Shown here piece by piece: positions 1,231 through 57,089 of a stretch of DNA of 64,000 nucleotides. This DNA is from Eledone cirrhosa (lineage: Eukaryota). The stretch is taken from NCBI GenBank assembly GCA_964016885.1, contig OZ024747.1, forward strand, positions 39,990,001 to 40,054,000, read 5' to 3'. A program made the translations under genes and the position numbers. Every line of letters starts with the position of its first letter. The stretch's first letter is position 1. The notes below the pieces were generated by a model, which made no database searches, was not told where the DNA came from, and saw nothing but the letters and a program-made list of their open reading frames with translations.

Positions 1231-1417
1231 ATATAGAATAGCTTCTACAGGGCTAGAACTGTTTCATTCGTGAGAAATCACCAGGAGCTTCCTGATGATT
1301 TCTCACGAATGAAACAGTTCTAGTCCTGTAGAAGCTTTTCTATATTAAACATTTATGCTCTACTATGTATTGAGTACCTTACTCACTGTGGATACCCCGA
1401 TTGAACCCGGAATAACT
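1231..1417 (+). mobile_element. Fold-back hammerhead element, family A (PLE pseudo-LTR-like)
   Basis: Inverted arms 1231-1285/1291-1345, then a unique tail to 1417, flanked by (TA)n. Homologous to 56872-57053. Confidence 0.8.
1286..1336 (+). ncRNA. Type I hammerhead ribozyme
   Basis: agcttc-CTGATGA-t(ttc tcac gaa)t-GAA-ACAG ttctagtc CTGT-A-gaagct. Stems I, II and III pair; cleavage triplet GUA. Confidence 0.85.
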
Positions 1418-1904: not shown

Positions 1905-2590
1905 TATTTATAGGTATGTATATAGTATAAACAACTATAAACAGGAAGGTCATTCATTTCTTAATTACCTTATTGCCAGTAAGAGAAATAGCTCAATGTA
2001 TTAACATCAGTTGTTTTACAGAGCAGGAAAATAAATAAATTATACAATTATCAAAGTTGTGTTCAAATCATTTAATAGCTGACAATCGTTTCTTCCAAAC
2101 TCTCGTTTGGAATCATCGGAGCATTATCAATGTTTGCACATATAACCAACCTCCTATTCAACTGAACAATAATATAGATACATCTAAAGTGATCTATATG
2201 AGCAACAGTTTCGTATTTACAGGGTGGAATGGATGTGACATATATTTTAAGAGAATTGTAGAATAATTGTATAAACATTCAAGTTCAAATTCAAATTAAA
2301 ATTCAAACTAAATTAAAATCAAAAGCACGGAGTGGAATACATGCAACATATTTGTACAATTATTGTACAATTCTCTTAAAATATATGTCACATCCATTCC
2401 ACCCTGTAAACACGAAACTGTTGCTCACAACATCAATTTATATGTATCTATATTATTGTTCAGTTGAATAGGAGGTTGATTATATGTGCACACATTGATA
2501 ATGCTCCGATGACTCCAAACGAGAGTTTGGAAGAAACGATTGTCAGCTATTAAATGATTTGAACACGACTTTGATAATTGTATAATTTAT
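1905..2590 (-). mobile_element. Fold-back element with CCGAUGA-variant hammerhead on both arms (family C)
   Basis: Arms about 2035-2275/2351-2590. + copy 2500-2547: gct-CCGATGA-c(tccaaac GAGA gtttgga)a-GAAAC-gatt-GTC-agc. Tail about 1905-2034. Confidence 0.75.
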
Positions 2591-13139: not shown

Positions 13140-13142
<3 letters not shown>

Positions 13143-13829
13143 CCAGAGACCATTGACCATATAATTTCAATGTGCAGTCCTATAGCTCCAACCGAATACC
13201 TAAACAGGCATGACAGAGCTGCACAATACATACATTGGATAATGTGTAAGCATTTTGACCTGCCCCATCAAAAGAATTGGTGGGAGCATCAACCACCTCC
13301 CATACTTGAAAAAGATCACATCTCAATCTTGTGGAACTTTAGCATCCAAACAGACCGAAAAATAGATGCAAATAGACCTGATATAATATTGAAGGACTTT
13401 CAAAGGAGGGTATGCCTGCTAATTGATATGTCTGTTACAATAGACAAGAATGTATCTATAAAAACATTTGAAAAATTGAGCAAGTATAAGGACCTGGAGA
13501 TAGAAATTGGAAAAATGTGGAAATTGAGAACTAAAACAATACCAGTGGTTGTAGGCGCTCTGGGAATGATACCTATGGGGTCTAACGACTACTTATCGCA
13601 AATCCCAGGAAACCCGCGTATAGGAGAAATACAAAAGATAGTACTAATGGGAACTGCCCATATACTAAGGAAGATCCTGTCAATATAAGTACACCACAAG
13701 TCTAAACACTAAGGATGCATGTGTGAATATGTATGTTCTTTCTTGAACATGGCGGACCTTGTTGTCTCTTGAGGTCACTGGTTGTGACTTGGTGATAACT
13801 CGTATGAACATAAAGCAAGATAAATGCAA
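13140..13829 (+). mobile_element. R4/Dong-like RLE non-LTR retrotransposon, 3' end
   Basis: ETIDHIISMC..RHD..QTD..NRPDII..LIDMS..EKLSKY..IPVVVGALG (Zn-knuckle end plus PD-D/ExK endonuclease). (TAA)n on both sides; 3' UTR shared with 24474-24615. Confidence 0.85.
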
Positions 13830-13883
13830 ATAATAATAATAATAATAACGACAACAACAACAACAATAATAATATACACATAT

Positions 13884-13973
<90 letters not shown>

Positions 13974-14003
13974 CACACCTATATACACACACACGATAGC
14001 AAT

Positions 14004-15068
14004 TAAAAGCGCTGCAATCGAATGTGGCTTTTTAGCCCAGCCAATGAGCTAAAATGTCTTTCACAGAGTTGGCAACCAAAACATTTACTGGGAATAGCCG
14101 GCTGTGGTTGGAGTTCATATACTTTTGCATGTCGTTTGAGCCCTCCTGCTGATTTACATTCTCTACCACATGCTTGGCAAGCATGATGAGTAGCATCTAA
14201 AACCGCAGCCTGGTAGTCAACCACTGGTCAAACTTTATGACTGCGAAGATGACTTTCGAGTCCAGCTTTGCTGAGCCAGACTCTCACACAGTCGCTGCAT
14301 ATCAGCGCCATGGGAGGACCTTCGCCGTCTGGAATGCTACAGTAATGCCCTTCCTCACATCCCGCTTTACTTTCTTGTATTCGATTGGAGATGCCTCAAA
14401 GGCAACTTTCCCCTCATATATAGTCTTTCTCCATTTATTACGATCAGCAGCTACATTTTCCCATGTATCAGCAGAGATGTTAGCGTCTTTCAAAGAGGCT
14501 TTCAAGGAATCTTTATACCTCTTTTTTGATTTATGTGGAGGTTGTTTTCCTTTAACTAACTCTCCATAAAAGAGTTGTTTTGATATTCGAATGCCGTTCA
14601 TTTGGCAGACGCAGAATATGGTCAGCCAGACGGCACCGACGCTCCGTGACGTCTCTGTAGCGTCCACGACTCGGCTCTCCGCAGGATCTCCTCGTTTCGC
14701 ACTCGGTCGCGCCAGGACACACGAAGGATCTTTCGGAGGCACCGTAAAGCGTTCAGCCGTCTCTCTATTTTTGCCGTACTCTTCCAGGTCTCGCTCGCAT
14801 AAAGCACTGTCGGCAGCACGATGCTCTTGTACAGGCGGAGCTTGGTCTTGGTGCTAATGCATGAAGACGACCAGACTGGGCACAACCGCTGTAAAACTGC
14901 GGTTCCTTTGCCGATCCGACAGTTGATGTCGAGCTCCGCGTCGCCGCTGCTTGTCAGGATGCTGCTCAGATAGGTGAAGTGATCGACTTCCTCGAGGTCC
15001 TGTGGTTGACTCTGATCACTGGACCTGTGTTGCTGGCCATTCTCATGACCCTGGTCTTTTTGTTGTAT
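14004..15068 (-). mobile_element. RTE-clade LINE 3' portion, decayed
   Basis: LEEVDHFTYLSS, LYKSIVLPTVLYASETW, KQLFYGEL..RYKDSLK..TWE, and two C2H2-like motifs (CQACGREC..GLKRH; CQLCERHF..GLKSH). Confidence 0.85.
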
Positions 15069-15266
15069 GTTGCGCAACTGCACGGCATTCCTGCAAGATT
15101 CATCGCCAATTTCAAGGCCCTGTATGAAAACTCCAGCTGCTGCGTACGGACTGAGTCCGGTGTGACGGAGTTCTTTGACATTGTCTCCGGAGTCAGACAA
15201 GGTTGCATTCTCTCTCCACCGATGTTCCGAGCTGGCAGCCGATTTCGTACTAAGGCGAATGGATGA
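15069..15266 (+). mobile_element. Inverted upstream RTE RT segment
   Basis: HGIPARFI..LYENS..GVRQGCILSP on the + strand, abutting the - strand RTE. Confidence 0.8.
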
Positions 15267-15813: not shown

Positions 15814-16153
15814 ACAAGAGAGAGAAAAAAGAAAAAAGAGAGAGAGAGGAAATAGAAAGAGAAGAGAAGGCGAAAGCTCTAAGTGATTGGTGTTGAGTTA
15901 TCTTAACATTTGAGATGAAGTAAATGTCAATATGTATTTATAAAATTGCTCTATATTATATTTTATCTGATGAAAGCACACCATAATTTAACTTGGTCTC
16001 CTTGAAATATGTGTAATGAAATAAATATAGTTTTATAAATATAGTTTCCATTTGTTAATATCGTATTTTTACTCCAATTATTTGTTGAGTGCTTTATATC
16101 AGTTATAAAAATATATGCTTGTTGTATCCCAACAATTTAAATAGAACTTTTAC
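15409..16153 (+). mobile_element. Fold-back hammerhead element, family D
   Basis: Arms 15409-15549/15924-16075. HHR 15961-16023: ttttat-CTGATGA-aag..ctt-GAAA-tatgt-GTA-atgaaa. Tail with TTGAGTGC. Homologous to 61491-62226. Confidence 0.8.
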
Positions 16154-19043: not shown

Positions 19044-19139
19044 GGAATTGTAACATCCAGTTACTGTAGGTTCAGCCGAGTGAGCACTCGTTGCGTAGTC
19101 TCCAGTAAGTATAGAGGTGTAGTACTAAGCAGAGTGTAA

Positions 19140-19171: not shown

Positions 19172-21085
19172 ATTTCATTTATTGGCCACAAGGGCCAACA
19201 TATAGGGGACAATACAAAAGACTGGGACAGTGGGGTTTTACAGAAAAATCGAATAAACAATATGAATCATAATAACAAAGTAACAATAACAAAGTAACAA
19301 TAAAGTAACAAGAAAATTACAAGAAAAAATTCCCCAATAGGGGGATGGCCACCCAGGGTTCGCTTAGGTACCCCACCAATCCTGAACGACCCGACGCTTC
19401 GTGAGCACCCTGGAAGGGCACCCCTCTCCTCCTCAAATGTACTTACCTACAGCCGCATGACCAGAGTAGGCCCACTCACACGGGCCATTCTCGCCAGATT
19501 CACCCCCCTTTCAGCAAATGTTCTGGGGGGGCAGCACTTCTCTCTCTACCCTCACCTTCCTTTCCCAGTGAAACTTGAAAAAGTTGATGAGGCATTGGCC
19601 GAAGAGAGAAGTGTCTGTCTTCAGTGCTTTCAACCTCGTCCACCATACAACCTCTTTACCTACTGCCACCAGACAGAGGAAAATTGCCTGCCCTTCTGGC
19701 CAAAAGAAGGCGGCGGATCGATCTTCACTATGGACTCGGCCGATAGCCGGATCCGTTATACAAGCGACAACAGCTGTTCAACATAACTCCACAATTCAGT
19801 AATGCACAGACACTGGACGAGTGCGTGCAGAACGGTTTCGTCGCACTGCGCGCATCTCGGGAGGGGGCCTCTGACAGTACTTCCGTGCCTGTAGAGTTTA
19901 TCTCGAACCGGGAGGGCCCCCCGGTAGCACTACCAAGCGAGGGGTTTTTTGGAAATTATCCATCGTCCCCGGCTCGAAAGTCCTCCGGTACAGACTGGTT
20001 AGTTCGACTTCGTTGACTCCCAGAGCCTCTCCGGTCTGACGCTAGTAGATGACGGACGCGATGTACGCGTTCGCCACCTGCGCCCGACCTTTCAGCGATA
20101 GCTTCATCCCAGCCCATTTCTGGGTGAGACTGGCTACCCTGCCCGTCACCTCGTCCCAATTCTTATCCACCTAGAGGTCTGGCACGAACCAAACCCCGAG
20201 AAACTTTACCGGTCCGTCCGTCCAGCGCCTAACGATGCTGTTGGACGGCATGGCCTTGACTCTCCAGGTGCCGAGTTGCAAGCCCACCGACTTTTCCGGG
20301 TTAAGTTTTGCTCCCGTCAACCTTTCATATTCCTCCAATAAGTTGCCGACCACCTCGATTTCTGAGGTGTCCGACACCATCACGGTGATGTCGTCCGCAT
20401 AAGCCGACACAGCCTTTCCGCGTCCCGGTTCAAGCGGGATGCCCTGCAACAGCTCCAGCTTCCGCAGTAAAGGCTCGAGAGTCAATACGTACAGAAGGGA
20501 GGAGAGAGGGCACCCTTGACGGACCGATCGGGAGACCTGAAACGGTTCCAAGAGGTGGCCATTAATTTTGACCATCGAACAGGTGCCGATTTGCATTGCA
20601 GCGATCCAGCTTCTGAAGACGGGGCCGAAGCGAGCTGCCTTGAGGACAGCCTCCAGGTACCGTTGGTCGACCCTATTGAATGCTTTCGATTGATCTAAAT
20701 TGATCAGAGCCCCACCGAAGCCAGGTTTACACCCAACCCTCTCTATGATGTATCGCATTAGGTGGAGGTTGTCGTGGGATTTCGCAAGTTTGCGCCTCCC
20801 CAACCAAATCCCCGACGACAAGCGCCAACCTCTTCGCTAACACCCTGGCCAAAGTCTTAAACTCTGTGTTGAGCAGAGTTATGGGCCTGAAATTGTCTAA
20901 TGTGTCCCTCTTGTTCTCGTCTTTCCTTATCAGCGTCACTATGTCCCGGCTCACAGAACTGGGAATACTCCCGTTTTTCTGCCAGTTGCAGTAGAGGGCT
21001 TCGAGGAGATTGGATAACAAGTCTGGCATATTTACGTAAAGCTCGTAGGGCAGACAATCCAAACCCGGTGACTTGCGCCTCATGC
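19170..21085 (-). mobile_element. Tx1-clade L1 copy A (RT to 3' end, internally deleted)
   Basis: KSPGLD, NFRPITLLN, LDQSKAF, VRQGCPLS, YADD. Near-identical to part of 24960-27315; 3' end AATAAA then (ATT)n. Confidence 0.9.
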
Positions 21086-21525
21086 TTCATCTCCACTGCT
21101 GGAAGACAAAGGATATGTGGCTGTGAGTGTATCTGTGTCTGTGTGTGCATTTATTGTTTTGTCTATGTGTATAATTGGAGAGGTAGGGGGAGTTGGAGAT
21201 CGTCCCTCGTATTCCTCTTGTATTGGTTTCGGTGCTGTTGGTGGTCCGGCTGTTTTTGATGTTGGTGGGTTACCCGTGTCATTGTTGGTGGTATTTTTGT
21301 GGTGGTGGTGCAGCTTTCCGTGCCGACACTGGTGTTGGCAACAAAGAAGGTTTGCGACCCGCAGCATTTTTGAGCTGCGGACAGAAGGCTTGCAGATGCG
21401 TTGCTTCCCCGTATACGAAGCAGTGAGGCCTTCTTCCCTCAGTGATTAATTAGATTATTGTCCCGTCCTGCAGGCGGGCAAAATCCGGTATATTGTTGAT
21501 GTCCTCTGGTTTCATTTAGAGAAAA
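21086..21525 (-). mobile_element. Tx1 ORF1 fragment (diverged subfamily)
   Basis: IPDFARLQ..RRPHCFVYGEATHLQAFCP aligns by eye with the ORF1 knuckle at about 29583-29700. Confidence 0.65.
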
Positions 21526-21529
21526 ATAA

Positions 21530-22950
21530 TGCTTCCTTTATTAACCACAATGGTTTACACAGAGTAAAAGCATTAAGGAAAATACAGGATAATACAGGAC
21601 GGTACAAATGGGTATTTCTGCTTGTAAAAAAAATAAAAAACAGAGGATGTAACAAAAAACGAAAATCAATGAAAAATTCCCAAGAGGGAGGGAGACCTCC
21701 GAGGGTTGCTCGTGGAGAAAGCCCACAAAAAAAGCCTCAGTTACCCTGGCCGCTAGGGCAAATGCCCTCTTCCAGTTTTCCTCCTACTATTCTGCAGGCA
21801 CACGCTCAGCGTAGACCCATTCACACGGGCCATTCTTGCCTCTCTCACCCACCTTTCAACAAATTGGCTGGAAGTCAGCACTTCCCGTCTTCAATCCTTT
21901 CGAGGGCTGTATTCGAGTGAAGACATTTCAGTCTCCAAGCGCTTGACCCAGGACTGCAGCTCCGTCAAGGAGACAAGCTGGGGAAACACGTGTCTAGCAA
22001 AGGGTGACCACGCCTGATCACCGTCGAGGAAGAGGTGGAGATGTCGTATCCTTAGCGCATGATGTCTGCGCATCATCAGTCGCGGCATGCCCAGCCCTCC
22101 GCGTAGCGGGTGTTGACAGCAGATGGACCGCCTGACATCGGAGCACGTCCCTTTCACAAAAAGTGAAAGAGCAAACGCTCCAGTCCAGTTAGGCGAGGCT
22201 TAGGACAAGGCATGACGGTGGTGCGGTAGTAGATGACGGACGCGACGTTGTACGCATTCGCCACCTCCGCTCGACCTTTCAGAGATAGCTTCCTCTCGGG
22301 CCATTTCTGGGTGAGAGAAGCCACCTTGCTCGTTACCTCGTCCCAGTTTTTGTCCGTCTGGAGTCTGGACCGAACCAGACCCCTAGCAATTTAACGGGTC
22401 TGTCCGTCCAGCGCCCGACGACGCTGTTGGACCTCGTGGACCTGTCTCTCCAGGTGCCGAGTTTCAGGCCCTCTGATTTTTCCTGGCTGATCATTGCTTC
22501 TCTTAGTGTAGTGCCGATTGCCTCAATGTGTTTGGCGTTCGTCACTACTAAGGTGACGTCGTCTGCATAAGCTAACACGGTTCTTCCGCATCCTAGTTTG
22601 CGCTGGATCCTCCTCAACGTCTCCAGTTTGTGCAGTAATGGCTCGAGAGTCAATAAGTACTACAAGGATGAGAGAGGACATCCTTAGCGGATCGAGCTCA
22701 TGATGTTGAACGGTTCCGAAAGGTGACCGTTAACTCTCACCACAGAGCAGATGTCGCTGTGCATGGCAGCAATGCAGCCTCTGAAGACAGGCCCAGAGCC
22801 AGCTGCTCTTAGGACTACCACCAGATAACGATGGTCAACCCTATCGAAAGCTTTTGACTGATATAAATTGATCAAAGACCCACCCAAGCCAGGTTCCCTA
22901 GCTATCCTCTCTACGATGTATCGCATGAGGTGGAGGTTGTCGCGGATGGA
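21530..22950 (-). mobile_element. Tx1-clade L1 copy B (second subfamily)
   Basis: QSKAFDRVDH, LEPLL, YADDVT, GGLGMP; 3' UTR shared with 24657-24955. Confidence 0.85.
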
Positions 22951-22957
22951 ATAATAA

Positions 22958-24615
22958 CGCAAATTCAGCGAAGGGGAAATGAAACGTGTCAGTAAAAACG
23001 AGGTAAATTGTAACACTTCAAATCCCAGGGTTGGGGCGGAATCACTGACAGCAGAACAAATTAAAGAAAGGATCGAAAAAGTGGCAGGAGTGCATGCTCA
23101 AGATGAAACTCAAAATGAAAACAATGAGATCGTCAATGATAAAGAACTTGCCAACTTGAAGAATGAAATTATGATCGAATGGATGAAAATGAAAAAATCT
23201 GACATGGGGGAACGAGACACTGTCCCTAAGATCCAGAACTCCAAACAAAACCAAAGGATAATACACAAGACTAACATAACTCTCAAAAACATTATCATCA
23301 CAAATAAACTAAACATTACTGATCTAAATCATCTCTATTATGCATCGGCTAAATTCACCACTCAGTTATGTGGAATGAAAATGAAAAAACAAAGGAATTC
23401 CCACAAAAAACCTACAGGGCAAGAGAACATCAATCACCAAATAAACCTTCCCTGGTCTGACATAGAAATTTTAGCAAACTACAAAGTAGGTGAACATGTT
23501 AAACAAACTAAACTTAGAAAATTGAAAAGAAAATACAGTATAAATCAACACGTGACATAGACATGCTGATAGAAACAATCAAGCAAAAAGTGTCGACCAA
23601 AGCTGCTCGTATAAGGCGCTTTGAAAAACGATCTAGATTCTATAAGGACAATATGTTCAAAAACAACCGAAGGAACTTCTACAAAAAAATTGGCAAGTCA
23701 ACAATAACTGCTAAATCAATACCACCCAAGGGGAAAATGCAAGAATTCTGGGAAAAGATCTGGGCCGAAGAAAAAGTTCATAATATACATGCCCCATGGA
23801 TAGACAGACGAATGAAAGATACAGCTCACCTTGAGGAACAAACATGGGAAAATATAACAGTTGAACATCTGCGTTTAGCTCTTAGAAAATCAAGCAAATG
23901 GAAATCCCCAGGGAAAGACAAAGTACAACATGTTTGGATAAATGCCTTCACAGAGTTTCATGAGCTGTTAGTCCAACTTTACAATGAAATGGTTAAGGAA
24001 CCAGAAAAAATACCATCATGGTTAGTTAACGGCATTACATTCCTACTTCCGAAGAATGATGAAACAAACAATCCCCAAAATAACAGACCGATAACTTGCT
24101 TGACATAACATTTTAACATCAGTCCTAACTGAATATACATATGATCACCTGATAACAAATTATCTATTTCTCAATGAGCAGAAAGGGTGTAAACGAGGCT
24201 CATATGGCAGTAAAGATCAGCTTTTGGTTAACGAAATGATACTGGAAAAATTGTCATAATAGACACAAAAATCTATCAATTACTTGATAGATTGGAAAAA
24301 TGGGGAAGTTAAGAACTAAAACAATACCAGTGGTTGGAGGCGCTCTAGGAATGATACCTAAGGGATCTAATGATTACTTATCGCAAATCCCAGGAAACAC
24401 GCGTATAGGAGAAATACAAAAGACAGTACTAATGGGAACTTCCCATATACTAAGGAAGATACTGTCAATATAAGTACATTACAAGTCTAAACACCTAAAG
24501 ATGCATGTGTGTGTATGTATGTTCTTTTTTGAACATGGTGGACCTTTTTGTCTCTTGAGGTCACTGGTTGTGACTTGGTGATAACTCGTATGAACATAAA
24601 GCAAGATAAATGCAA
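22958..24615 (+). mobile_element. R4/Dong-like LINE with large internal deletion
   Basis: N-terminal region, KSPGKD..TFLLPK..RPITCL, then a jump at about 24290 to KLRTKTIPVV..GALG and the 3' UTR; TAA runs at both ends. Confidence 0.85.
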
Positions 24616-24617
24616 TT

Positions 24618-24651
<34 letters not shown>

Positions 24652-24656
24652 TAATA

Positions 24657-24955
24657 ATACTTTCTTTATTAACCACAAGGGTTTACAGAAAGTAGACATT
24701 AAGGACAGTACAGGACAATACAGGACGGTACGAATGGGCATTTCTGCGTGTAAAAAACAAAAACAGAGGATGTAACAAAAAAATAACAATCAAAAATTCC
24801 CCAATAGGGGGGAGGCTTCGGAGGGACATTTGTGGAGAAAGCCCATTAAAAGGCCACAGTGACCCTGACCACCAGGGGAAGAGCCCTCTCCCAGTTTTCC
24901 AGCTTTAATTTACAGACACATACTCAGAGTAGGCCCATTCACTCGGGCCATTCTT
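24657..24955 (-). mobile_element. Tx1 copy C, 3' end only
   Basis: Homologous to 21535-21840. Confidence 0.8.
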
Positions 24956-25248
24956 GATAATGATTTCATTTATTGGCCACAAGGGCCGACATATAGGGGA
25001 CAATACAAAAGACTGGGACTTTACAGGTGGGGTTTTACAGAAAAATCGAATAAACAATATGAATCATAATAACAAAGTAACAATAACAAAGTAACAATAA
25101 AGTAACAAGAAAATTAAAACAAGAAAAAATTCCCCAATGGGGAGGATGACCACCTAGGGTTCGCTCAGGTACCCCACCAGTCCTGAACGACCCGACGCTT
25201 CGAGAGCACCCTGGAAGGGCACCCCTCTCCTCCTCACAATTTACCTAC

Positions 25249-28200
25249 CTACAGCCGCATGACCAGAGTAGACCCACTCACACGGGCCATTCTCGCCACA
25301 TTCACCCACCTTTCAGCAAATGTACTGAGGGCAGCACTTCTCTCTCCACCCTCACCTTCCTTTCCAAGTGAAACTTTAAAAAGTTGATGAGGGATTGGCC
25401 GAAGAGAAAAGTGTCTGTCTTCAGTCCTTTCAACCTCGTCCACCATACAACCTCTTTCGCTACTGCCACCAGTCAGAGGAAAATTGACTGCCCTTCCTGG
25501 CCAAAAGAAGGCGGCAGGTCGATCTTCACTATGGACCCGGCCGATAGCCGGATCCGTTCTACACACGACAACAGCTGTTCAACATAACTCCACAAGTCAG
25601 TAATGCACGGACACAGGGCGAGTGCGTGCAGAACTGTTTCGTCGCTCTGCGCGCATCTCGGGCAGGTCCGTCTGACAGCACTTCCATGCCTGTAGAGGTT
25701 ATCTCGAACCGGCAGTGCCCCCCCGGTAGCACTGCCAAGCGAGGGATTTTTGGACATTATCCATCGCCCCCGGTCCGAAAGTCCTCCAGTACAGACTGGT
25801 TAGTTCGACTTCGTTGACTCCCAGAGCCTCTCCGTGTGCGTCGTCGCACTTGCCCACCACTAATCCTCTATAGAACTCGAGAGTGGAAGTTCCACTGACA
25901 GCATTGCCCCCTTGGAAGAGGGCAGTGAGAGCCTGGCAACATTCCAGATGCCAGTCACCCAGTCTCGGTCTCTTCTTGACCCAGGACTGCAGCTTAGTCA
26001 GAGAAACGAGCTGCGGAAAGGCCCGTCTGACGAACGGCGACCACACCTGTTCACCGTTTAGGCAGAATATCTGGAGATGCCGCAGCCTCAGCGCGGGCCT
26101 GCACATCAGTAGCCACGGCATGCCCAGCCCTCCACGTAGAGGGTGCTGGCTGCAGATGGACCGCCTCACCAGCGGAACCTGACCCCTCCACAAGAATTTG
26201 AGGAGGAGCCGCTCCAAGATGGCGAGGCGCGAACGGGGGCAAGGGACGACGGTCAGACGGTAGTAGATGACGGACACTATGTACGCGTTCGCCACCTCCG
26301 CCCGACCTTTGAATGATACCTTCATCCCAGCCCATTTCTGGGTGAGACTGGCTACCCTGCCCGTCACCTCGTCCCAATTCTTATCCACCTGGAGGTCTGG
26401 CCCGAACCAAACCCCTAGCAACTTTACCGGTCCGTCCAGCGCCTAACGACGCTGTTGAACGGCATGGACTTTCCTCTCCAGGTGCCGGGCTGCAAGCCCA
26501 CCGGCTTTTCCGGGTTAAGTTTTGCTCCCGTCAACCTTTCATATTCCTCCAATAAGTTGCCGACCACCTAGATTTCTGAGGTGTCCGACACCATCACGGT
26601 GATGTCGTCCGCATAAGCCGATACAGCCTTTCCGTGTCCCGGTTCGAGCGGGATGCCCTGCAACAGCTCCAGCTTCCGCAGTAAAGGCTCGAGAGTCAAT
26701 ACGTACAGAAGGGAGGAGAGAGGGCACCCTTGACGGACCGATCGGGAGACCTGAAACGGTTCCAAGAGGTGGCCATTAATTTTGACCATCGAACAGGTGC
26801 CGATTTGCATTGCAGCGATCCAGCTTCTGAAGACGGGGCCGAAGCGAGCTGCCTTGAGGACAGCCTCCAGGTACCGTTGGTCGACCCTATCGAATGCTTT
26901 CGATTGATCTAAATTGATCAGAGCCCCACCGAAGCCAGGTTTACACCCAACCCTCTCTATGATGTATCGCATTAGGTGGAGGTTGTCGTGTATGGTCCTG
27001 GTTGGGATTGCGCAAGTTCGCACCTCCCCAACCAAATCCCCGACGACAAGCGCCAACCTCTTCGCTAACACCCTGGCCAACGTCTTAAACTCTGTGTTGA
27101 GCAGAGTTATGGGCCTGAAATTGTCTAATGTGTCCCTCTTGTTCTCGTCTTTCCTCATCAGCGTCATTACGCCCCGGCCCACAGAACTGGGAATACTCCC
27201 GTTTTGCTGCCAGTTGCAGTAGAGGGCTTCGAGGAGATTGGATAACAAGTCTGGCATATTTACGTAAAGCTCGTAGGGCAGACCATCCAAACCGGGTGAC
27301 TTGCGCCTCATGCAGCCGACAAGGGCATCTTGAATCTCGGCTGAAGTAATTTGCCTTTCGCAGCGCCCAGCGTCAGGCGTAGAGGGTTTGTAAGCCATCG
27401 AGGTAGGGACTGAAGTCCGCCACCATCTCTGACCCGCCACTTCCCCCGAACAACCGAGCAAAATGTTGGCGAAAGGCCTCACACATCATCTTGGAATCGC
27501 TCAGCTGGTGCCCGTCTCGGTCCGTCAATGACCGAATCGTGGTTTTATTACCACGCTGCGCCTCTGCCACGCGGGCCCATCGAATAGCTGTGGTTCCCTC
27601 GTTTCTCAGAGCATGCGCCTTAGCTCTGACAATGCAACCCTCGTGTTTCGCATTGAAGAAATGGTCTAATGCCATTCTCGCCGCTAGCACGTCAGTTGCA
27701 ATGCCACTACCAATAGCCTCCTCTAACTTATCTACCAACTCCCCCTCCTTTCTATTTTTCTATAACGCTACTTCTTTGCTAAACTCTATCGACATTACTC
27801 TAATCTCTCTTTTGAGAGCCCCCACCATCTATTGTTGACGACTACCCCTGTCAACGTTTTCTTAACTAAATTGTTGACCTGGTCCCTGTAAGCCTTACGT
27901 GACGGAAATGACATGTTTAGCTTCCAGTAACCAGGTCCTAACCTACGCGTCTTATCTAGGTCGACCATACAGATCACAAACTTGTGATCTGAATAGGCAA
28001 CTGTTTCAAAACGTGGACAGCTTACACTATTTCTCTCTATTTTCCTAATGAATATCCTGTTTATATACGATCTAGATGACCCTATGCGGTTAGCCCAGGT
28101 CCACACTGGAGCATTAGGGAAATCTAGTCGGTACCTGTCAGACAGTTGGAACTGGCTGATCAGGTTCTTGATGCTTTTTCACCCCCCGCTCCTATCGGAT

Positions 28201-28664
28201 ACTCCCACACAGTCCCAGCGTGTGTCTAAGATGCCGTTCCATTCCCCCGCTAACAGTAAAGGGCGAGACGTACCCAGAAAGGCTTCCAGGCGTCTAAAGA
28301 AGTCCGGCCATCCTTCCCCAGTAGGAGCATAGACGGCCACGAGTCTAAAGGCACCACCTTCGTTATTGTTCACGTCCAGGACCACCAACTTCCCGTCCGG
28401 GTCCCGAAAGATCGACCTTACCTCGAGATCCAGGCCTTTCCTAAACAGCACTGCCACCCCGCTTCCCATTCCCGGCCTGCTAACAGATGCTAAGATCTGA
28501 TAGTCGTCGAAAATGGGGGCTAGTGCGCGCCTGTCGGAAATCCTTGTCTCGCTGCCGGCAATTAGATCCATTTCTATAGACCTGAGGTCGTTGAGCAGGT
28601 GACCCTGCTTCCAGGACGATCCCAGGCCTCAAACATTTGAACATCCTACTCTTAATACGGCCAA
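25249..28664 (-). pseudogene. Tx1 ORF2: APE endonuclease, RT and C-terminal zinc knuckle (disrupted)
   Basis: SETR, GVAVL, VYAP, AGEWN, SDHK, WKLN; KSPGLDG, QGCPLS, YADD; CPRCAQSDETVLHALALC. Confidence 0.9.
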
Positions 28665-28699
28665 GTTGGCAGGTTAAAAAGAGAAAGAGGAAGGTTTAC

Positions 28700-30640
28700 T
28701 TACCTTCCGGGCTCTTGTGAAGGTCGGGTTGTTCAACCTCCATAATTGGTGGGGTTTCTTTTGGGAACCCCTTTAAAAGTCTTGAAGTGGATTTTACTTT
28801 CTGGGTTCCCACGTCCCGAGGAAAGCTGTCTCGTATTTCTTTGAATATATCGAACGACATTCACACCAGAACCAAATCTTCCGGCACGCGAAATGTGCTC
28901 GATTTAAAAATGTCACCCTCTTTTTTGTATATTTTCACTTCGTGCTACGAGGGCCATCAGTTCCTTGTTGGCCTTCCTGACGAGCACGAAGTTTTGTATG
29001 TTTTGTTGGTGTGATTTTATTTGTTTGCGTGGCTGTGGTAGTGATGGTTTTGGTGGTGCTGTTTCGGTTATATCTGTGTTTGTTTTGAGTGCGGTGTCTG
29101 TGGTTTCAGAGGTTTGTGTGTATATTTGTTCTTGCGTCTGTTTAGGTTGTTTGCGTTTGGGGGATTCTGGAGATGGTGATGGTGGTGTTGATGTTGGTGT
29201 TATTGGAGAGACGTTTGCGTGGGTGGTGTCTGCGTTTTTTATTGTGGGTGATTTTGTGCTTTGTTGAGTTTTTTTTTCTTTTTGTGTTTCCCTTTTTGTA
29301 GTTTGGGGGATTTTGGTTTTCCCTCATCTTCACTAGATGAGGGGTTTGTGTCTGTAACTGTGTCTGTATGTACGTTTATGGTTTTATTGGTGTGTGTATT
29401 TTGGGGGGGAGGGGGAATTTGACAGCTTTCCTCGTTTCCCCCCTGGGTGGTCAATGTTAGTGGTGGTCTTTCAATTGGTGTTGTTGTTGGTGGTTTTGCC
29501 GGTGATGGTGTTGGTTGTGGTCCACGCCCCGCCGTCGGCAGCAGTGGAGCCTTTCGACCCCTTGCCTCTTTCAGCCGTTGAGGGCAGAAAGCTCGCTAAT
29601 GGGTTTTTTTCCCACAAATAAAACACTGCGGCCTTTTGCCTTCGGTCATAATGTAAATGACCGTCTCATTCTGAAGGCGGATGTAGTCCGGGATTGTCTT
29701 CACATTCTCGGGCCTGATGTGGAGAAGGATCTCCAGGTCAACCCCGGACCAGTCCTCTCTGGCCGTTCAGGTCACTTCTATAGGGACGGTATCCGTCCCC
29801 TCCACAATCACACATCCCAGAAGCCACCACATGTCAAGTCCTGGTGGGATTCTGGGAATGCGGAGACGGGCCGTTCTTGTTCCCATGTAGGAGGGGTACA
29901 TTATGACCTTGCTGGTTTTGCAAGGAGTCATAGCGTGTTTCATGGCGAGGGCTTCTGACTTGAACAACACCGAAATGGTGCCGTACTGTCTGCCACTCTC
30001 TATGTATTCGGTGTATTTTCTGATGCACCTCAGCGCGACTTCGACATCTTCTTGTGGGATTAAAGCTGCCCTTTTGGTTTGTGCTGAGATGCATCAATAA
30101 TGCACTGTTCTGCGCTCCACTGCCTCAATAGCTTCTACCGGGACAGTTAAGTTGGCCCAGGTTTTCTCTTGTTTGATGAGCTTCCATGCCTGGGCCAACT
30201 TTTAATCTTTGTTTGAGAGGTCCATGTTGAAGCATGGCCTCTTTTTTGCTGCTGCCGCAGCGAAAGTGTTCTTCTTGTTTTCGTTGGAGGTGTTGTGGTC
30301 GTTGTCGTTGTTCTTGTTGGTGTTGTTGTTAGCACTGTCGCTGTTATCATTGTTGTCTTTGTTGCCACCGTTGTTCTCGGGCAGTTGGTATTGTTGGTGT
30401 TGGTATTGTTGCTATTTGTTTTCATGTTAGTGGTGTTGATATTTTTGTTGCATTTGTTTTTTGTTTTATTTGTATTTTCGTTGTCGCTGTTACTGTCATT
30501 TTTTTCAAAATTAGAGTTCTCATTGGTATCATTGGTGTCTTTGTTTACATTGTTTGTGGTGGAGTTTGTGTTATCAATGTGTTAATTTCGCTGTAGCGCT
30601 CCTCTCAACTTCTACGTCGTTGTCGCACGACGGCCGACAT
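28700..30640 (-). pseudogene. Tx1 ORF1 (gag-like, disrupted)
   Basis: EGKRPQCFICGKKTH*RAFCP CCHC knuckle near 29583-29624; low-complexity N/T-rich linkers; ends approximate. Confidence 0.7.
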
Positions 30641-30898
30641 ATCGCTGGGGGGGGCTCAGCCTTGTTTTTTTTTTCTTCGTAAATTTTTTAACATGTAAAA
30701 AAAAGTTCAAATATTTGAGCCAAAAGGCCCAAATATTATACTTTCCCCTTCACGGGGCAAAATCTAAGGGCTTAGATCCCTTACACAACAAGAAATATTT
30801 AACAACAAATAATTTTAACAACAAATAATTTTAAATAAAGCGACTTACTGTGAGCGAGCAAAATACGTCCGCTTAGACCAATAATAGTAATAATAATA

Positions 30899-31822
30899 GG
30901 GAAAGGGAGAGCTTACCATCAATCACCTCCTCTTCATGGACGATCTTAAGCTCTTCGGGAAGAGTGAGAAGGAGTTGGATGTGCTTGTTGACACTTCTCC
31001 GTATTTTCAGCAATTATATATGTATGCAATTTGGTATTAGTAAGTGTAGAGTCCTTGTGATGACGTGGGAGTAAATTGAGCAGAAGCAACGGAATCCAGG
31101 TACCAACAGGTGAGATGATAAAGGAAATTGACACTGAAGAAGGATACAAATATTTAGGTGTTCTGAAGGTTGATGACATCAAGAACAAAAAAATGAAGGA
31201 ATTGATAAGATCTGAATACTTTCGGAGAGTAAGGAGCGTATTAAAATCACATCTGAACAGTAGGACTGCCATAAGTGCAGTAAATTCCCGAGCTGTGTCT
31301 ATTATTAAGTACAGTGCGGGAATTCTGAGATGGAATGTTGCTGAACAAAAAGAAATGGATAGGAAGACTAGGAAGCTATTGACTATCTACAACATGTTCC
31401 ACAAGAGGAGTGATGTCGATAGACTCTACTTAAGGAGATCTGAAGGTGGAAGAGGTCTTATCAGCATAGAGGACTGTGTTCAGATGGAGAAAAACAACAT
31501 GCACAAATACGTGACTGATAGTAGGGAGCCAATGCTCAGAATTGTACTGAAGGAGAGGACAATAGACCAGGGGATGTCCAATGAGGAAATAACGACAAGG
31601 AGAAAGAGCAACCTTCATGAAAACTCCCTTCATATTACCTTCTTTGAGAAAACTGAATTTAGATATCGACAGACATGGAACTGGTTGAAAATAGGAGACC
31701 TTAAAAATGCTACAGAAGGAATGCTAATGGCTGCGCAAGAGCAGACCCTCAAAAGGAAGTGGCTGAAACACCATATTTACAAGGAGGAGGCTAGCCCACT
31801 GTGTAGGATCTGTGTAGGATCT
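30899..31822 (+). mobile_element. R4/Dong-like LINE, RT C-terminal half
   Basis: INHLLFMDDLKL, YKYLG, RLYLRRSEGGRGL, TEGMLMAAQEQ, CRIC; begins at a TAA run. Confidence 0.85.
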
Positions 31823-32081
31823 GTACGGCATTGCTTTATATCTGGAGATCTCTCTGCACTTGTTGTCACATGGTTCAATGGGCCCAGCACTATGTGTCAG
31901 TAATTGTCACAAGTGTAGTGTTTGTACCAGAGTTTTCAAGTCGCTGGCTAGACTAAAAAGTCACACTGGTTCAGAGCATCGGTAGGGGTTCTCCTACATG
32001 GATATAAAGTAGTGGCTGTACTCGAAAACGAGTTGGCAGCCACCATGTATGTACTTATGTATGTATGTGTGTATGTGTATG

Positions 32082-32136
<55 letters not shown>

Positions 32137-32889
32137 TGACATACGCATTGATTAATTAATAACTGCAAACATATACATAGAAAAAAATGTATATATATAT
32201 ATATATATATATGTCCCAAAAAATGACGCAAAGGGAGGCATTATGAAAGTGTTTAGTGATATGGTGAGATGGTGGCTGGTGTAGTGAGCCCTTAAATTTC
32301 TGCTTACCCTGAATCGTTTTACAACTGATTAAGGGGAAAATGGGTTTCGTGGAGCGAGTATCAACACTGCGTATGTTCATGTTGGATACAATTCAGACAT
32401 AGGATAAATATGTGATCATATATATTACATAGAATAAACCAATGTGTGATTTAGATTTTTTCACTATCCTTTAACATATATCATTATAAAATAAGAAAAC
32501 AAAGAAGAAAAAAACCAGGCCGATAAGGAAATGGGAAAACGGGAAAAGATATAGGGAATCTCTAAGAACGAAATTAAGCCAATCTTTCCGATGTCTTGTA
32601 ATATATCAGATGAAATAATTTCTTTCGTTAAGTATGGGACGTCTTTCAATCTGACCTTATATTTTTGTGTGCACCTAAGAGACGGGGGTCAAAATCACAT
32701 TCTACATGCAAACAACATACACCACTTATATACATATATGCCTGTATCTGTATCGCCAGAATGTCCATAAAGACAATATTTATAATTCTAGGAGAGAAGA
32801 TATCTTGTTAAAATGAAAATAGATTAATTAAAAGTGCATAGTTGTTAAATCAAATTGAGAATACCTATTTCAAAATGATTCTATATCAC

Positions 32890-33100
32890 ATCAAACTGAG
32901 AATAGCGATTTCATATTGAGCTCATGTCTGAACAACAACTTACTTGATTTAATTGCCGGGTGCTGTATAACTGGAATGAAAATCGGTGCTGCGAAACTTG
33001 AGACATTCGTCTTCTCAAAGAAACCCGCACAGTGCATTTTACATGTGAATGGAATGATGCTAGGGCTGCGAAATCTTATACGCATTAATTTCAACTCTTC
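32890..33100 (+). mobile_element. Ancient RTE-like RT relic
   Basis: GMKIGAAKLETFVFSKKPAQCILHVNG resembles the post-YADD GM.I..K.E.MV region. Confidence 0.4.
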
Positions 33101-34560: not shown

Positions 34561-35179
<619 letters not shown>

Positions 35180-35827: not shown

Positions 35828-35902
35828 CGTATGTGTGTTTGTATATATATATATATATATGAAGTAAGAATATTTTTCGAAACAGCGAGCGGGTTTGAAA
35901 TT

Positions 35903-36142
35903 ATTATAAATGTAAGCTATCACCGTATTTTGACTAAAGAAATTATTTAGCCTGATAGTGGAGTTAAGAACTCTCGGTGTTGGTGTAAATGGTAGCATAG
36001 TGGCCTGGATAACCAAAGATGTGGGTTCGACTCCCATGTACGTCAATACTCATCTTTTTCCATTTCTCCGAGGGTTCTTAACCCCACTATCAGGCTAAAT
36101 AATTTCTTTAGTCAAAATACGGCGATAGCTTCCATTTATAAT
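35903..36142 (+). mobile_element. Inverted-repeat element enclosing a tRNA-like Pol III unit
   Basis: About 75-bp arms 35903-35977/36068-36142; core 35976-36046 with A box TGGTGTAAATGG, T arm gtggg-TTCGACT-cccat, then TTTTT. Confidence 0.7.
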
Positions 36143-36314: not shown

Positions 36315-36315
<1 letters not shown>

Positions 36316-36502
36316 CGAAGGAAATGTGGTAAGGAACCAGATGGACCATAACGCACCAAAGTACTCAATAATTAGGGTAGTAGAGTGGGTAATAGGAACG
36401 AGTAGGACCCCGACGGCTGAGCACAAGCCGTTTCGACGGCTAATTCTGAATTAGCCATCGAAACGGCTTGAGCTCAGCCGTCGGGGTCCTACTCGTTCCT
36501 AT
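36315..36502 (-). mobile_element. Fold-back hinged in hammerhead stem II (family F)
   Basis: Palindrome 36392-36502, centre 36447; GAAAC-ggct tgagctc agcc-GTC; no CUGANGA. Confidence 0.75.
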
Positions 36503-42536: not shown

Positions 42537-42820
<284 letters not shown>

Positions 42821-42825
42821 GTCCA

Positions 42826-42956
42826 GAAATAGCCGTCGAAACGGCTTGAGCTCTGCTGTCGGGGTCATACTTTCTCCTATTACTCACTCTACTACCCTAA
42901 GTATTGAGTACTCTGGTGCGTTATGGTCCATCTGGTTCCTTACCACAACTCCTCCG

Positions 42957-44210: not shown

Positions 44211-44258
<48 letters not shown>

Positions 44259-44260
<2 letters not shown>

Positions 44261-44592
44261 GGAGGTGAGTTTTATTGTAGTACAATAAAGCAATGCAGAT
44301 ATCGGATAAGAAGCACTCTACAGTTTGTGGGACTGGAGTATGCATAATATAAGATCAAAAGATGGTTAAAGGAGTTCCATATATTTTATTATGCGCATTT
44401 CAAAAACAAACATCATCAAGCAATAATATTTGTGTTTTCATCAGATAAAACAGGAGAACATATCATGTTCAGCCTTCATATCATGTTCTCCTGTTTTATC
44501 TGATGAAAACACAAATATTATTGCTTGATGATGTTTGTTTTTGAAATGCGCATAATAAAATATATGGAACTCCTTTAACCATCTTTTGATCT

Positions 44593-44712: not shown

Positions 44713-44966
44713 ATAATATTAAATTTGAAGACTAAAATCCAAAGTGGGCTCGATAAGGATAAATATATATCAAATATATAAGAACCGTAGAGCAAATATT
44801 CTTTGCTTAAACTTTAATCTGTCATTTTAATAAGTATATATATATATTTATTAAAATAACAGATTAAAGTTTAAGCACTGAATAGATGCTTTCACCCTTA
44901 AATATAGCATTCTTATTGCGTGTACAGGTAATGAAACTGTGTATACATTTTTGGGGAATTTGGGAA

Positions 44967-46422: not shown

Positions 46423-47020
46423 AAATGGCGAAACATGCCCCTGGTGAGTGTGTACATGTGTGATTTAGGTGAGGATGGTTTCATTTCAATTTATACTTTT
46501 AATTTTACCAATGCCTCTAGTAGCTTATATTTTCTTCACGCTGGTGGTTTGAAATTCCTGCAAAGAAAAACAAAGAAAACAAAGAAAAACAAAGAAAAAC
46601 AAAGAAAAACAAAGAAAAGCTCTTTGGTGTCTTTCCCCTCTATATATTGTATATATATATATACATGTGATTTTGGAGACCCTGCTGGACAAAAAACAAA
46701 GCCTGACAAAGTGCGGAAGAACTCATAAGAGTCAACGGCCATCCAAAAGTCTGTAAATATGTATATACACATGTACATATGTGTGTATATGTATATGTGT
46801 ATACACATGGGTGCATGTGTATGTATAAGCGCAGGGACATAGAAATAGTCGGGCTGGACACCCGATCGCGTGGTTAAACCACTGGGAGTGAAAGACCCCT
46901 AGCCTTTGTCTGGGCATTCTTCTAGGAGACGGTAACTCAGGAAACTGGGATATTTGTTGAGTGCTTTATATCAGTTATAAAAATATTTGCTTGTTGTATC
47001 ACAACAATTTAAATAGAACT

Positions 47021-47535: not shown

Positions 47536-48180
47536 AGCCTTAGATAGAGCTATATACATATATATATAATTATATATATATTATATATATATAGGATTAT
47601 ATATATTTTATATGTATATATATATAATACATATATAATATATATATATATATATATATTAACTCGTATGTGGTTCATTGTTGAGAGAAAAAAGTACTTA
47701 ATACCGAAGTTAAAATATTCATATTAATTCTAAATATTGATCCTTATTACATATATACATATTTATATTTACACATTTATAATATATATATATATATGTG
47801 TGTGTGTATGTGTATGTGTGTGTGTAATGTTCAAGTTCCATCTGGTTTTATAAATAAATTTTAATATTTTTTTTTTTAGTTGTTTATGATTAGTTTGACC
47901 CAAAATACTTAAGACTTTTCACGTTTCAAACCTATAGTGCTTTATCGTATATGTAATCTCATGTGTTTGAAAGCAAACTTATATATATAAATAAATAAAT
48001 AAATGGCATTGTTAATTAATAAATAAATCAACTAATACCTTAACACTTCACACAAAGTAAAATATTTCGTTTTAATCATTTTCTAACCCAGAAAAAAAGA
48101 GAGAAAAAATAAAAAGTTAAAAAATATATTTTTCTTCCTAATAATCGTTTTCTTCTCCCTGTTTTCATATATATATATAT

Positions 48181-48346
48181 ATTAAAATAACAGATTAAAG
48201 TTTAAGCAAAGATTCGCTGCTTTCACCCTTAACGGGATCTTCTGAAACTTTAATAAATATTTGCTCTACGGTTCTTACATATCTGATATATATTTATTCT
48301 TATCGAGCCCTCTTTAGATTTTAGTCTTCAAATTTATTATTATTAC
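48181..48346 (+). repeat. Short (TA)n-flanked repeat family
   Basis: Recurs inverted at 44710-44833 and 45937-45980. Confidence 0.65.
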
Positions 48347-48788: not shown

Positions 48789-49038
48789 GTAGGAGGTGAG
48801 TTTTATTGTAGTACAATAAAGCAATGCAGATATCGGATAAGAAGCACTCTACAGTTTGAAGGACTGGAGTATACATAATATATAAGATCAAAAGATGGTT
48901 AAAAGAGTTCCATGTATTTTATTATACGCATTTCAAAAACAAATATCATCATGCAATAACATTTGTGTTTTCATCAGATAAAATAGGAAGACATGATATG
49001 AAGGTTAAAAAACACTTGTGAATAGTGCAGTTTTAAAT

Positions 49039-49197: not shown

Positions 49198-49642
49198 TAT
49201 TATAAAATAACAGGAGGCTGGACTGGTGTAAATCCTTGAAAGGTTTATTATTCTATGATCATTTCAATGACCGGGTTCAGTATGAATCCGGTGACATCAT
49301 CAGGTATTCAAAATATAACAAAGGAACATAACAGATAAAATCCATTTCAGCCCCATGGATTTTATCTGTTATATTACTTTGTTATATTTTGAATACCTGA
49401 TGATGTCACCGGATTCATACTGAACCCGGTCATTGAAATGATCATAGTATAATAAACCTTTCAAGGATTTATACCAGTCAAGCCTCCTGTTATTTTATAA
49501 TAATTAACTCAGTACTCGCACCACCAACAACACAAATGAAGACTGGTGAGTTGCATTACGTTGAGTGCTCTCCATAATATTACTTCAAGGTTGACCATAC
49601 GGAATGACCAGTTCTATCCAGTGGTGAACCAACAAACCTAAA
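49198..49642 (+). mobile_element. Fold-back hammerhead element, family I
   Basis: Palindrome 49198-49502. HHR 49393-49450: atac-CTGATGA-tg..accgg..ccggt..-GAAA-tgatc-ATA-gtat. Tail recurs at 9668-9720. Confidence 0.8.
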
Positions 49643-50078: not shown

Positions 50079-50616
50079 AATAAAATAAAATAAATAAGTC
50101 AAATGTTTAAAATTTAGCTTCGTTTATTACTGCTATATATATTTCGGTGTCAGCCATCTTTGGCTGTGGCCTCCTCAGGCAGTCCTAATTAGTGTGGTAT
50201 AGACAAGTACATATGTTGTTGAGGTGTATAACATTGTCAATACTCTGATATGCCCAGTTCCTGGTTGGGTTGTTATTTCACTGAGGAACTGGAATCAATA
50301 TGACTCCAGTTCCTTAGTGAAATAACAACCCAACCAGGAACTGGGCATATCAGATTATTGACAATGTTATACACCTCAACAACATATGTACTTGTCTATA
50401 CCACACTAATTCGGACTGCCTGAAGAGGTCACAGCCAAAGATGGCTGTCACCGAAATATATATAACAGTAATAAACGAAGCTAAATTTTAAACATTTGAC
50501 TTATTTATTTTATTTTATTTTACATTACTCCGGAGTAACCAAACCAACCTGCGCACTTCGTCGAGTGCTCCAATCTGCATACTGAGGTGATGGTATACAA
50601 CCAACATATACTCAAA

Positions 50617-50620
<4 letters not shown>
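50079..50620 (+). mobile_element. Fold-back hammerhead element, family J
   Basis: About 220-bp arms, centre about 50299. actgc-CTGAAGA-ggt.acagcca aaga tggctgt.acc-GAAA-tatat-ATA-(g/a)cagt at 50415-50469 and rc 50129-50183. Confidence 0.85.
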
Positions 50621-50977: not shown

Positions 50978-51168
50978 AATTAGGAAGGATTCGGTTTGAA
51001 ACTGGTTAGACTATTACTCAATAGGGTACTCGATACTTGAGGTAATAGAGTATGGTTATATTATAAAGAGTCGGGAGACCTTGCCGTTTCAACAGCTAGT
51101 TCCCGAGTCTGGAACTATCTTTTGAAACAGCAAGAGCTCAACCGTTGGCTTCCCGACTCCTTATAATA
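50978..51168 (-). mobile_element. Diverged family-F-like fold-back hinged in stem II
   Basis: IR 51059-51168, gtttcaacagctagttcc/ggaactatcttttgaaac, gagctc loop, tail with tcgagtac. Confidence 0.55.
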
Positions 51169-56871: not shown

Positions 56872-56874
<3 letters not shown>

Positions 56875-57053
56875 TGAGAATCTACAGGACTAGAACTGTT
56901 TCATTCTTTAGAAATCATCAGTGATTCCTGATGATTTCTAAAGAATGAAACAGTTCTAGTCCTGTAGAATCTCATCTATATTAAAACTTGTATACTCTGC
57001 TATGTATTGAGTACCTTACTTACTGTGGTTACCTCCGATTCAACCCGGAAAAC
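56872..57053 (+). mobile_element. Fold-back hammerhead element, family A
   Basis: Arms 56872-56921/56928-56977; HHR 56923-56971: gattc-CTGATGA-..-GAAACAG ttctagtc CTGTA-gaatc. Confidence 0.85.

Positions 57054-57089
<36 letters not shown>

Follow-up and report, generated by a model that had tools for sequence, protein, structure and literature searches.

Recurrent insert ends of Hydra-clade Penelope-like elements lie a few nucleotides before a bulged hairpin that occurs twice in the 5′ leader

A short motif recurring in the tails of retroelement inserts in a 64,000-nt stretch of the Eledone cirrhosa genome (hereafter, the window) is the 3′ strand of a hairpin with the layout RCUC-stem-loop-stem-[UH bulge]-GAGY, a structure that is almost certainly a genuine conserved signal and that belongs to a known clade, the Hydra-type Penelope-like elements (PLEs). 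The hairpin covaries and is present in two copies in the 5′ leader upstream of Hydra-type ORFs, and the recurrent ends of the inserts lie 5 to 9 nt before hairpin 1 when the end is tail-less or before hairpin 2 when it is tailed. We think it probable that these hairpins position internal initiation by the element’s own reverse transcriptase (RT).

The window is (TA)n-rich animal DNA from a genome of 3.0 Gb. Its TA runs are occupied by short inserts, many of them arranged as head-to-head pairs, each with a predicted minimal hammerhead-like core 60 to 130 nt before the motif. The original prediction listed YGAGTRC at 14 places in the tails of unrelated families; 13 of these are GAGTRC on the strand given, and the site at 55919 reads GAGTAT. 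The proposed position, 45 to 90 nt from the 3′ end, holds for 12 of the 13 GAGTRC sites, which lie 46 to 79 nt ahead of a (TA)n run, and fails at 42793, where the distance is 164 nt because the end of another family has been joined behind it. The sites represent about eight families rather than 14, and their flanks are only in part as dissimilar as had been claimed, since four families have several copies among them (1370/57007, 16085/46957/62155, 36361/42904/51027, and 44312/48843). To quantify position, GAGTRC sites with a TA run 40 to 95 nt downstream were compared with the background rate, copies of one family being counted as independent. The predicted enrichment was present in the window (13 of 39 sites versus a background of 9.5%, P = 4 × 10^-5) and recurred in another 69 stretches of 10 kb each, chosen at round coordinates (690 kb; 56 of 329 versus 5.3%, P = 1.5 × 10^-14). 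The strand bias is partial: only 3 of 39 reverse-complement sites in the window have such a run, but outside the window the reverse complement is enriched as well (38 of 327, P = 6 × 10^-6). Among 523 flanks from 59 of the 10-kb stretches, the top hexamer 40 to 95 nt before TA runs was TTGAGT, with 29 occurrences against 4 for its reverse complement and 5 further from the TA run.

Upstream of GAGY lies an RCTC, followed by bases that pair with those preceding a two-base bulge. Such a bulged hairpin, with at least two inner pairs, was found in 12 of 29 clusters of GAGTRC sites near TA runs; of the remaining clusters, most are apparently matches by chance and two have a bulge of one base. For an analysis of covariation we collected, from hammerhead-anchored regions and contig starts, all GAGYRC sites that have an RCTC a short way upstream, 396 in total, and reduced them to 88 clusters (62 from metagenomes and 26 from the same genome). 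Inner pairing was not used in picking these sites, whose definition fixes the GAG/CUC pairing. With a 2-nt bulge, inner positions 1, 2, and 3 were paired in 75, 64, and 51 of the 88 sites, at positions 1 and 2 far above the registers without a bulge (6, 43, and 33), with a 1-nt bulge (6, 41, and 45), and with a 3-nt bulge (18, 30, and 35). Pairing also exceeded that of 5,000 permutations at each of the three positions (P below 0.001), a result inflated by related sequences, whereas the comparison between registers keeps relatedness. Inner position 2 features all four Watson-Crick types (A-U in 21 sites, G-C in 13, U-A in 13, and C-G in 8), and G-U-type pairs account for 24 of the 190 paired cells at inner positions 1 to 3. 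The pair preceding the bulge is C-G in 50 sites and U-A in 23, and the outer pair is G-C in 65 of the 88 and A-U in 15; the GAGT of the original prediction is therefore the A-U form, which is common in this genome. Its leading Y corresponds to a pyrimidine in only 10 of the 13 GAGTRC sites; the conserved base is the U two places 5′ of GAG, the first base of the bulge in 81 of the 88 sites, and the consensus is better given as U-H-GAGY. Many second hairpins have a single inner pair, and in several window copies the bulged hairpin is not the lowest-energy fold. A scan of 20 metagenome loci against Rfam returned nothing matching a family threshold at the hairpins and reported no hammerhead family, and a scan of the window gave only microsatellite-driven matches among the 150 of 368 matches listed.

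The individual copies in the window can be followed with a model built from the 14 of 32 metagenome hairpins that could be aligned, whose own pair counts are circular, these sequences having been chosen as hairpins, and were not used as evidence. It gave 14 matches in the window, covering nine of the 14 listed sites and three unlisted hairpins; the top six were all listed sites, and only two had an E value below 0.05. The motif at 1366 to 1380 is the 3′ strand of hairpin 1 of family F1 (1357 to 1377, plus strand; second-best model match), composed of GCUC, a 3-bp inner stem, a UU bulge, and GAGUAC. It belongs to a head-to-head solo-pLTR insert of Hydra type in (TA)n (1231 to 1417, plus strand) with a tail-less inverted left arm and a tailed right arm, and the predicted minimal hammerhead-like core (1292 to 1320, plus strand) lies 80 nt before the motif. 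The other F1 copy (56994 to 57014, plus strand; insert about 56873 to 57054) also matched the model. In family F2, hairpin 1 at 16071 to 16092 (plus strand; model match) follows a hammerhead core at 15967 in an insert with a tailed end at about 16153 and a tail-less inverted partner ending at about 15411; the inner stem is weak in the copy at 62141 to 62162 (plus strand), and only the 3′ strand remains at 46957 to 46964 (plus strand), a copy truncated within the hairpin loop. Family F0 provides the best model match (hairpin 1 at 42886 to 42911, plus strand), a copy with one inner pair broken (36361 to 36386, minus strand; insert about 36315 to 36500), and a related copy (51026 to 51051, minus strand), both of which matched as well. 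Further matches are hairpin 1 of family F3 at 44313 to 44339 (minus strand), in an insert of about 44258 to 44592 with a tailed left and a tail-less right arm, and at 48844 to 48870 (minus strand), and hairpin 1 of family F5 at 50527 to 50568 (plus strand), which has a 6-bp inner stem (insert about 50080 to 50619).

The remaining listed sites are variants. The F7 hairpin (42778 to 42799, plus strand) has a one-base bulge, which is A here and U in copies L043, L083, and L378, and the F7 hammerhead follows a Hydra-type endonuclease in L014 and L135. F11 has a long-loop hairpin (49507 to 49568, plus strand; ORF untraced) whose first inner pair is broken here and intact in L125, and 55907 to 55926 (plus strand) is a degenerate or variant hairpin with a UUC partner and GAGUAU. 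Besides the upstream partner strand and the GAGC form, the original prediction missed a hairpin of family F4 (19084 to 19135, minus strand; ORF untraced), hairpin 1 of family F30 in a GAGCCC form (48263 to 48310, plus strand; model match) with a second copy at 44742 to 44795 (minus strand), and, assigned by eye, a model-matched GAGC-form hairpin at 1987 to 2026 (minus strand) in the tailed arm of a hammerhead-bearing insert of about 1930 to 2587, with its ORF untraced. Also by eye, a variant with an unmatched outer pair, a 3-bp inner stem, a UC bulge, and GAGC was seen at 34962 to 35002 (plus strand), in the tailed arm of the insert at 34644 to 35066. A weak model match at 47935 to 47976 (minus strand), with a GCUU/AAGC stem and AAGCAC, is possibly a further hairpin variant, and the head-to-head insert at 35860 to 36136 has one longer arm in which, as elsewhere in it, no GAGY hairpin was seen. 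The window also holds, as judged by eye, fragments of other non-LTR retroelements with RT- and endonuclease-like frames (13140 to 15260 and 19270 to 33000), including a long element present twice, from about 19270 and 25070; an 18-bp tandem array of about 159 copies occupies 58369 to 61249.

The Penelope-like identity that the original prediction assumed proved correct, and the traced elements fall, by their motifs, into the Hydra clade. F3 inserts are the end of an element that has an RT-GIY-YIG ORF of 821 aa, F1 reads through into 758-aa frames with RT and endonuclease pieces, and F0, F2, and F5 continue into ORFs of this kind, of which only N-terminal or RT parts were seen. The F1 ORF was reached by walking upstream, read-through patterns having given only chance or nested matches, and a protein search aimed at F1 matched F30, a different family. 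The N-terminal RW[RK]-type motif is RLRWT in F3, RLRWR in F0, RIRWR in F1 and F2, and RMRWK in F5; DKG is replaced by DKT (SDKT in F3 and F0); and the endonuclease regions of F3 and F1 show, by eye, a CxCx5C linker, no CCHH, and CxxC plus CxH near the end of the domain. The hammerhead core pattern is predicted in the pLTRs of F1, F2, F3, and F5 and as a variant core in F0, and insertion into (TA)n is seen in the position test and in the end mapping. In all of these respects (RW[RK], DKT, the linker, the cysteine and histidine pairs around the endonuclease end, a C-terminal endonuclease, a pLTR hammerhead, (TA)n targets, and an optional one-sided tail), the elements agree with the Hydra clade as set out in the available parts of Craig et al. 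2021 (PMC8557442). They differ from that description in their longer tails (70 to 105 nt versus 30 to 40), in their size, given there as generally under 3 kb and here about 3.5 kb (F0) and 3.9 kb (F3) per tandem unit or longer (F1, with a 2.3-kb 3′ region), and in the leader hairpin pair, which those parts of the published description do not contain.

Several features of these families deserve separate mention. F3 is a very young family, with at least 150 matches 100% identical over 144 residues of the endonuclease region, many of them in intact 821-aa frames and tandem arrays; many intact frames also exist in F1 (758 aa) and F30 (713 aa). Copies of F1 carry with them, in the 3′ region (L411:6700-9025), about 1.8 kb of microsatellite-like sequence mixing TA and TG. 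The F0 hammerhead core (L196 to L225) reads as a variant (UUGA..A type) in which the stem II loop is very long and stem III is extended, and recalls the U3-A8 core change described for Schistosoma PLEs in the accessible text of PMC4209133.

Full-length copies have two hairpins between the hammerhead and the start codon. In tandem F3 copies, the second lies just past the tailed end; predicted from F3, hairpin 2 was then found before the Hydra-type ORFs of F0, F2, and F5, with search patterns that required RCTC shortly after the end. Read-through in F1, F3, F25, F30, and F31 was found without this condition, and F25, F30, and F31 again have two hairpins. Hairpin 2 lies about 25 to 80 nt before the start codon. 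We mapped insert ends by placing TA junctions on the read-through references and measuring the gap from the modal end to the hairpin. For short and long ends, respectively, the modal gaps were 8 and 6 nt in F0 (23 and 35 of 69 ends), 7 and 8 nt in F2 (17 and 22 of 60), 7 and 7 nt in F3 (15 and 15 of 51), and 6 and 6 nt in F5 (8 and 6 of 24). In F30 the short ends lie 5 or 9 nt and the long end 6 nt before the hairpins (13, 11, and 19 of 54), and the F25 long end lies 6 nt before its hairpin (3 of 5 ends); the three ends mapped in F31 included no recurrent one. The ends fall at TA/TAT in the RNA sense. Spacing between the canonical hairpins ranges over 76 to 106 nt, and the short end lies, by eye, anywhere between roughly 15 and 60 nt from the hammerhead; the ends therefore follow the hairpins rather than the ribozyme. 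Family F1, to which the 1366-to-1380 motif belongs, has one short end 6 nt before hairpin 1 (22 of 133 ends) and another 17 nt before it (12 of 133), and it has no canonical hairpin 2; its main long end, which is also its commonest end (48 of 133), lies 9 nt before an unbulged 4-bp hairpin with one inverted pair, which is either a degenerate second hairpin or a counterexample. In the window, both outer ends are visible in ten head-to-head inserts, and by eye all ten combine one short and one long end. In L287, L288, and L240, tandem repetition is confined to the tail unit, which in L287 and L288 extends from the short-end to the long-end site, as though copying had restarted at hairpin 2 once it had reached the hairpin-1 site.

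To see how widely the hairpins occur, metagenome contigs were scanned, yielding 565 relatives, of which 77 Hydra-type loci were kept; a first metagenome scan and the viral contigs had returned nothing. In these loci the hairpins recur about 200 and 130 nt before the RW motif. Among 37 non-redundant hammerhead-anchored regions, 23 have a hairpin and 9 have two, compared with means of 2.0 and 0.12 over 200 shuffles, and of the 14 regions lacking a hairpin, several run into (TA)n ahead of the place where it would lie or are ORF-internal matches to the search pattern. The reverse strand also yields the loose descriptor in 10 of the 37 regions because GCUC/GAGC is self-complementary, and the register test on the 88 sites, which is not circular, is the better control. 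Only two metagenome insert ends were mappable, 7 and 11 nt from the hairpin. Six published Hydra consensi in File S7 of PMC8557442, part of the material of that paper available to us, were inspected by eye: Hydra-1_Ajap has two hairpins at its start, Hydra-2_Amil and Hydra-2_Ajap each have one in the tail, the Crog consensus has one with a mismatch, Hydra-1_Amil has a weak one, and none was seen in Obim.

The hairpin was not seen in pLTR stretches of the ORF-linked non-Hydra families. A search with the GIY-YIG Pfam domain returned mostly Neptune-like families, and seven of seven pLTR stretches of up to 300 nt each from five ORF-linked non-Hydra families (Neptune-like, Poseidon-like, and one other, the clade labels being our own) had no bulged hairpin. 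In ten non-Hydra loci the hairpin model matched only outside the pLTRs, and among hammerhead stretches without a linked ORF it matched in two of eight, one convincingly. Several Neptune-like PLE families in L120 to L139, with KRYLDD, have hammerhead pLTRs of their own, and in one of these families a CUC/GAG hairpin with no bulge lies about 90 nt past the hammerhead core; L046:493-2950 and L130:3444-5600 hold a Poseidon-like PLE and a PLE whose RT has a long insertion, and both have hammerhead pLTRs and lack the bulged hairpin.

What might the two hairpins do? The 3′ end of an insert is the first base copied. The original prediction offered a cis-element for RT/endonuclease recognition as one option, and the data favor this option in the form of a twice-present, base-paired RNA hairpin and not a linear 7-mer. 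In the scheme we consider probable, the RT-endonuclease would nick (TA)n and bind a hairpin as a docking site just 3′ of the start site, and the nicked TA end would pair with the UA-rich spacer just 5′ of the hairpin. Copying would then run away from the hairpin, and the hairpin used would therefore never be copied. A start at hairpin 1 would give a tail-less end, and a start at hairpin 2 a tailed end containing hairpin 1, the form behind the original prediction. If both hairpins of one RNA were used at two cut DNA strands, head-to-head inserts with one short and one long end could arise, and a one-sided tail would follow if two DNA ends were primed at different hairpins. Such an optional one-sided tail is noted in the accessible text of PMC8557442 and PMC3846280, and, according to the available parts of PMC11167929, reverse transcription by a Poseidon-clade PLE in vitro starts at two internal sites that bound the tail.

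An alternative that we regard as unlikely, albeit the strongest competitor, is that the hairpins bind protein for RNP assembly in cis or for translational control upstream of the AUG, with the starts set by UA microhomology to (TA)n and the fixed spacing a by-product. The location of hairpin 2 shortly before the start codon would suit such a role in protein binding, and both the TA/TAT ends and the F1 long end, kept without a canonical hairpin 2, would fit microhomology. Yet the leaders are rich in UA dinucleotides, whereas the ends cluster at one or two places, and this clustering 5 to 9 nt before each hairpin is seen in six families with different spacing. Less probable still is that the structure acts in single-stranded DNA (cDNA or melted donor) and that the GIY-YIG endonuclease cuts or resolves a few bases before it. 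Earlier work cited in the accessible text of PMC11167929 found the Drosophila Penelope tail to be needed for endonuclease recognition, and PMC8557442, in the parts available, ascribes the tail to endonuclease-mediated resolution; against this, G-U-type pairs are common in the inner stem, and the tail ends match RT start sites on RNA in the only PLE reconstituted (PMC11167929, same parts).

A role of the motif in splicing or as a promoter within the pLTR, the other option of the original prediction, seems to us very improbable, even though Penelope and Chlamys-3 are described in the available text of PMC8557442 as having a 5′UTR intron and a promoter in the pLTR. The majority GAGC form has no GT, the AG is preceded by G and so offers no YAG acceptor, the compensatory inner-stem changes would be needless in a double-stranded DNA motif, and the two copies are tied to insert ends. 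No run on record as RNA was listed; contigs from three runs of unknown kind, uninformative on splicing or expression, showed loose TA ends at the two F3 ends, with the motif itself free of any joint. Least probable of all is a pattern with no current function, left by common ancestry or chance in related families: all traced carriers belong to one clade and the two hairpins may stem from one old duplication, but across hosts whose element proteins are only about 45 to 55% identical the seven core bases, the U of the bulge, and the register of pairing are retained, while loops, flanks, and spacing cannot be aligned.

Under the preferred reading, in which the hairpins position RT initiation, the bulge raises the question of how they would be gripped. 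In the accessible text of PMC6189040, the arginine sandwich ASM3 of 7SK has the order A39, U40 U41, G42, A43-U66, with the A-U pair and the bulge U joined in a triple. The Hydra hairpins resemble 7SK SL1 and HIV TAR, as described there, in having a purine in a base pair, next a bulge of one or two bases with its U, and then G-C and A-U pairs; the bulge pyrimidine directly follows a Watson-Crick pair. They differ in being short hairpins of variable loop in which the 3′ strand carries the bulge, and the likeness is one of secondary structure only, with no common origin implied. By analogy, it is tempting to speculate, at somewhat less than even confidence, that the bulged U forms a U.A-U triple taking an arginine as in 7SK and TAR. 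The arginine could perhaps come from a near-invariant RxR before I[IV]W[FY]NPP, found in 115 of the 116 Hydra homologues that have the downstream motif, or from the RxRW motif. A metagenome Hydra protein has a good predicted structure (pLDDT 88) with generic RT matches including TERT; a sequence search of the PDB gave no match to it, and the predicted structure locates no RNA-binding site. More tentatively, a dimer of this telomerase-related RT might clamp both hairpins through the arginine motif, the TAR/7SK-like pair serving as a ruler, so that one cDNA would be primed per cut strand, 5 to 9 nt before each hairpin.

Stringent LINEs such as R2 have a 3′ stem-loop, a cis-acting RNA structure that recruits their own RT. 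The Hydra hairpins would resemble such signals in this respect but differ in position: the LINE signals lie within the copied 3′ end, whereas the Hydra hairpins form a pair just beyond the start, uncopied, in the 5′ leader of the next unit. A further close parallel is PAc, a Poseidon element from Anolis (Frangieh et al. 2024, PMC11167929), which, according to the parts available, likewise has two internal RT starts downstream of the hammerhead with the tail between them, an AT-rich target, and a predicted dimer. In contrast, PAc belongs to another clade and starts inside the ORF, in an AC-rich stem-loop, and no RCUC/GAGY hairpin was visible by eye in the template letters of its Fig. S1; that in vitro study narrowed the RNA region and, in the same parts, defined no binding motif or signal. 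No published account of the hairpin pair was found in a literature search outside which lay subscription journals, Repbase reports, figures, bioRxiv supplements, and most of the PMC8557442 supplement, nor is the pair described in the accessible portions of PMC11167929, PMC8557442, PMC4209133, PMC6189040, PMC7229834, PMC3846280, and bioRxiv 10.64898/2026.07.22.740005.

The hairpins address how PLEs choose internal starts and why a tail appears at one end only. In several families both ends can be predicted from a short, covarying hairpin that occurs twice, and Hydra elements of distant hosts retain it, which reduces the choice of start site to simple mutate-and-move experiments. Were the dimer and ruler reading true, it would account for both the one-sided tail and the head-to-head inserts and would mean that a transferable 25-nt signal could be used to program where a eukaryotic RT initiates internally. 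A start signal that is small and portable could also be of interest to engineers of retroelement RTs. How PLE RTs grip RNA beside the template boundary bears on the origins of telomerase, given that telomerase RT is their sister group.
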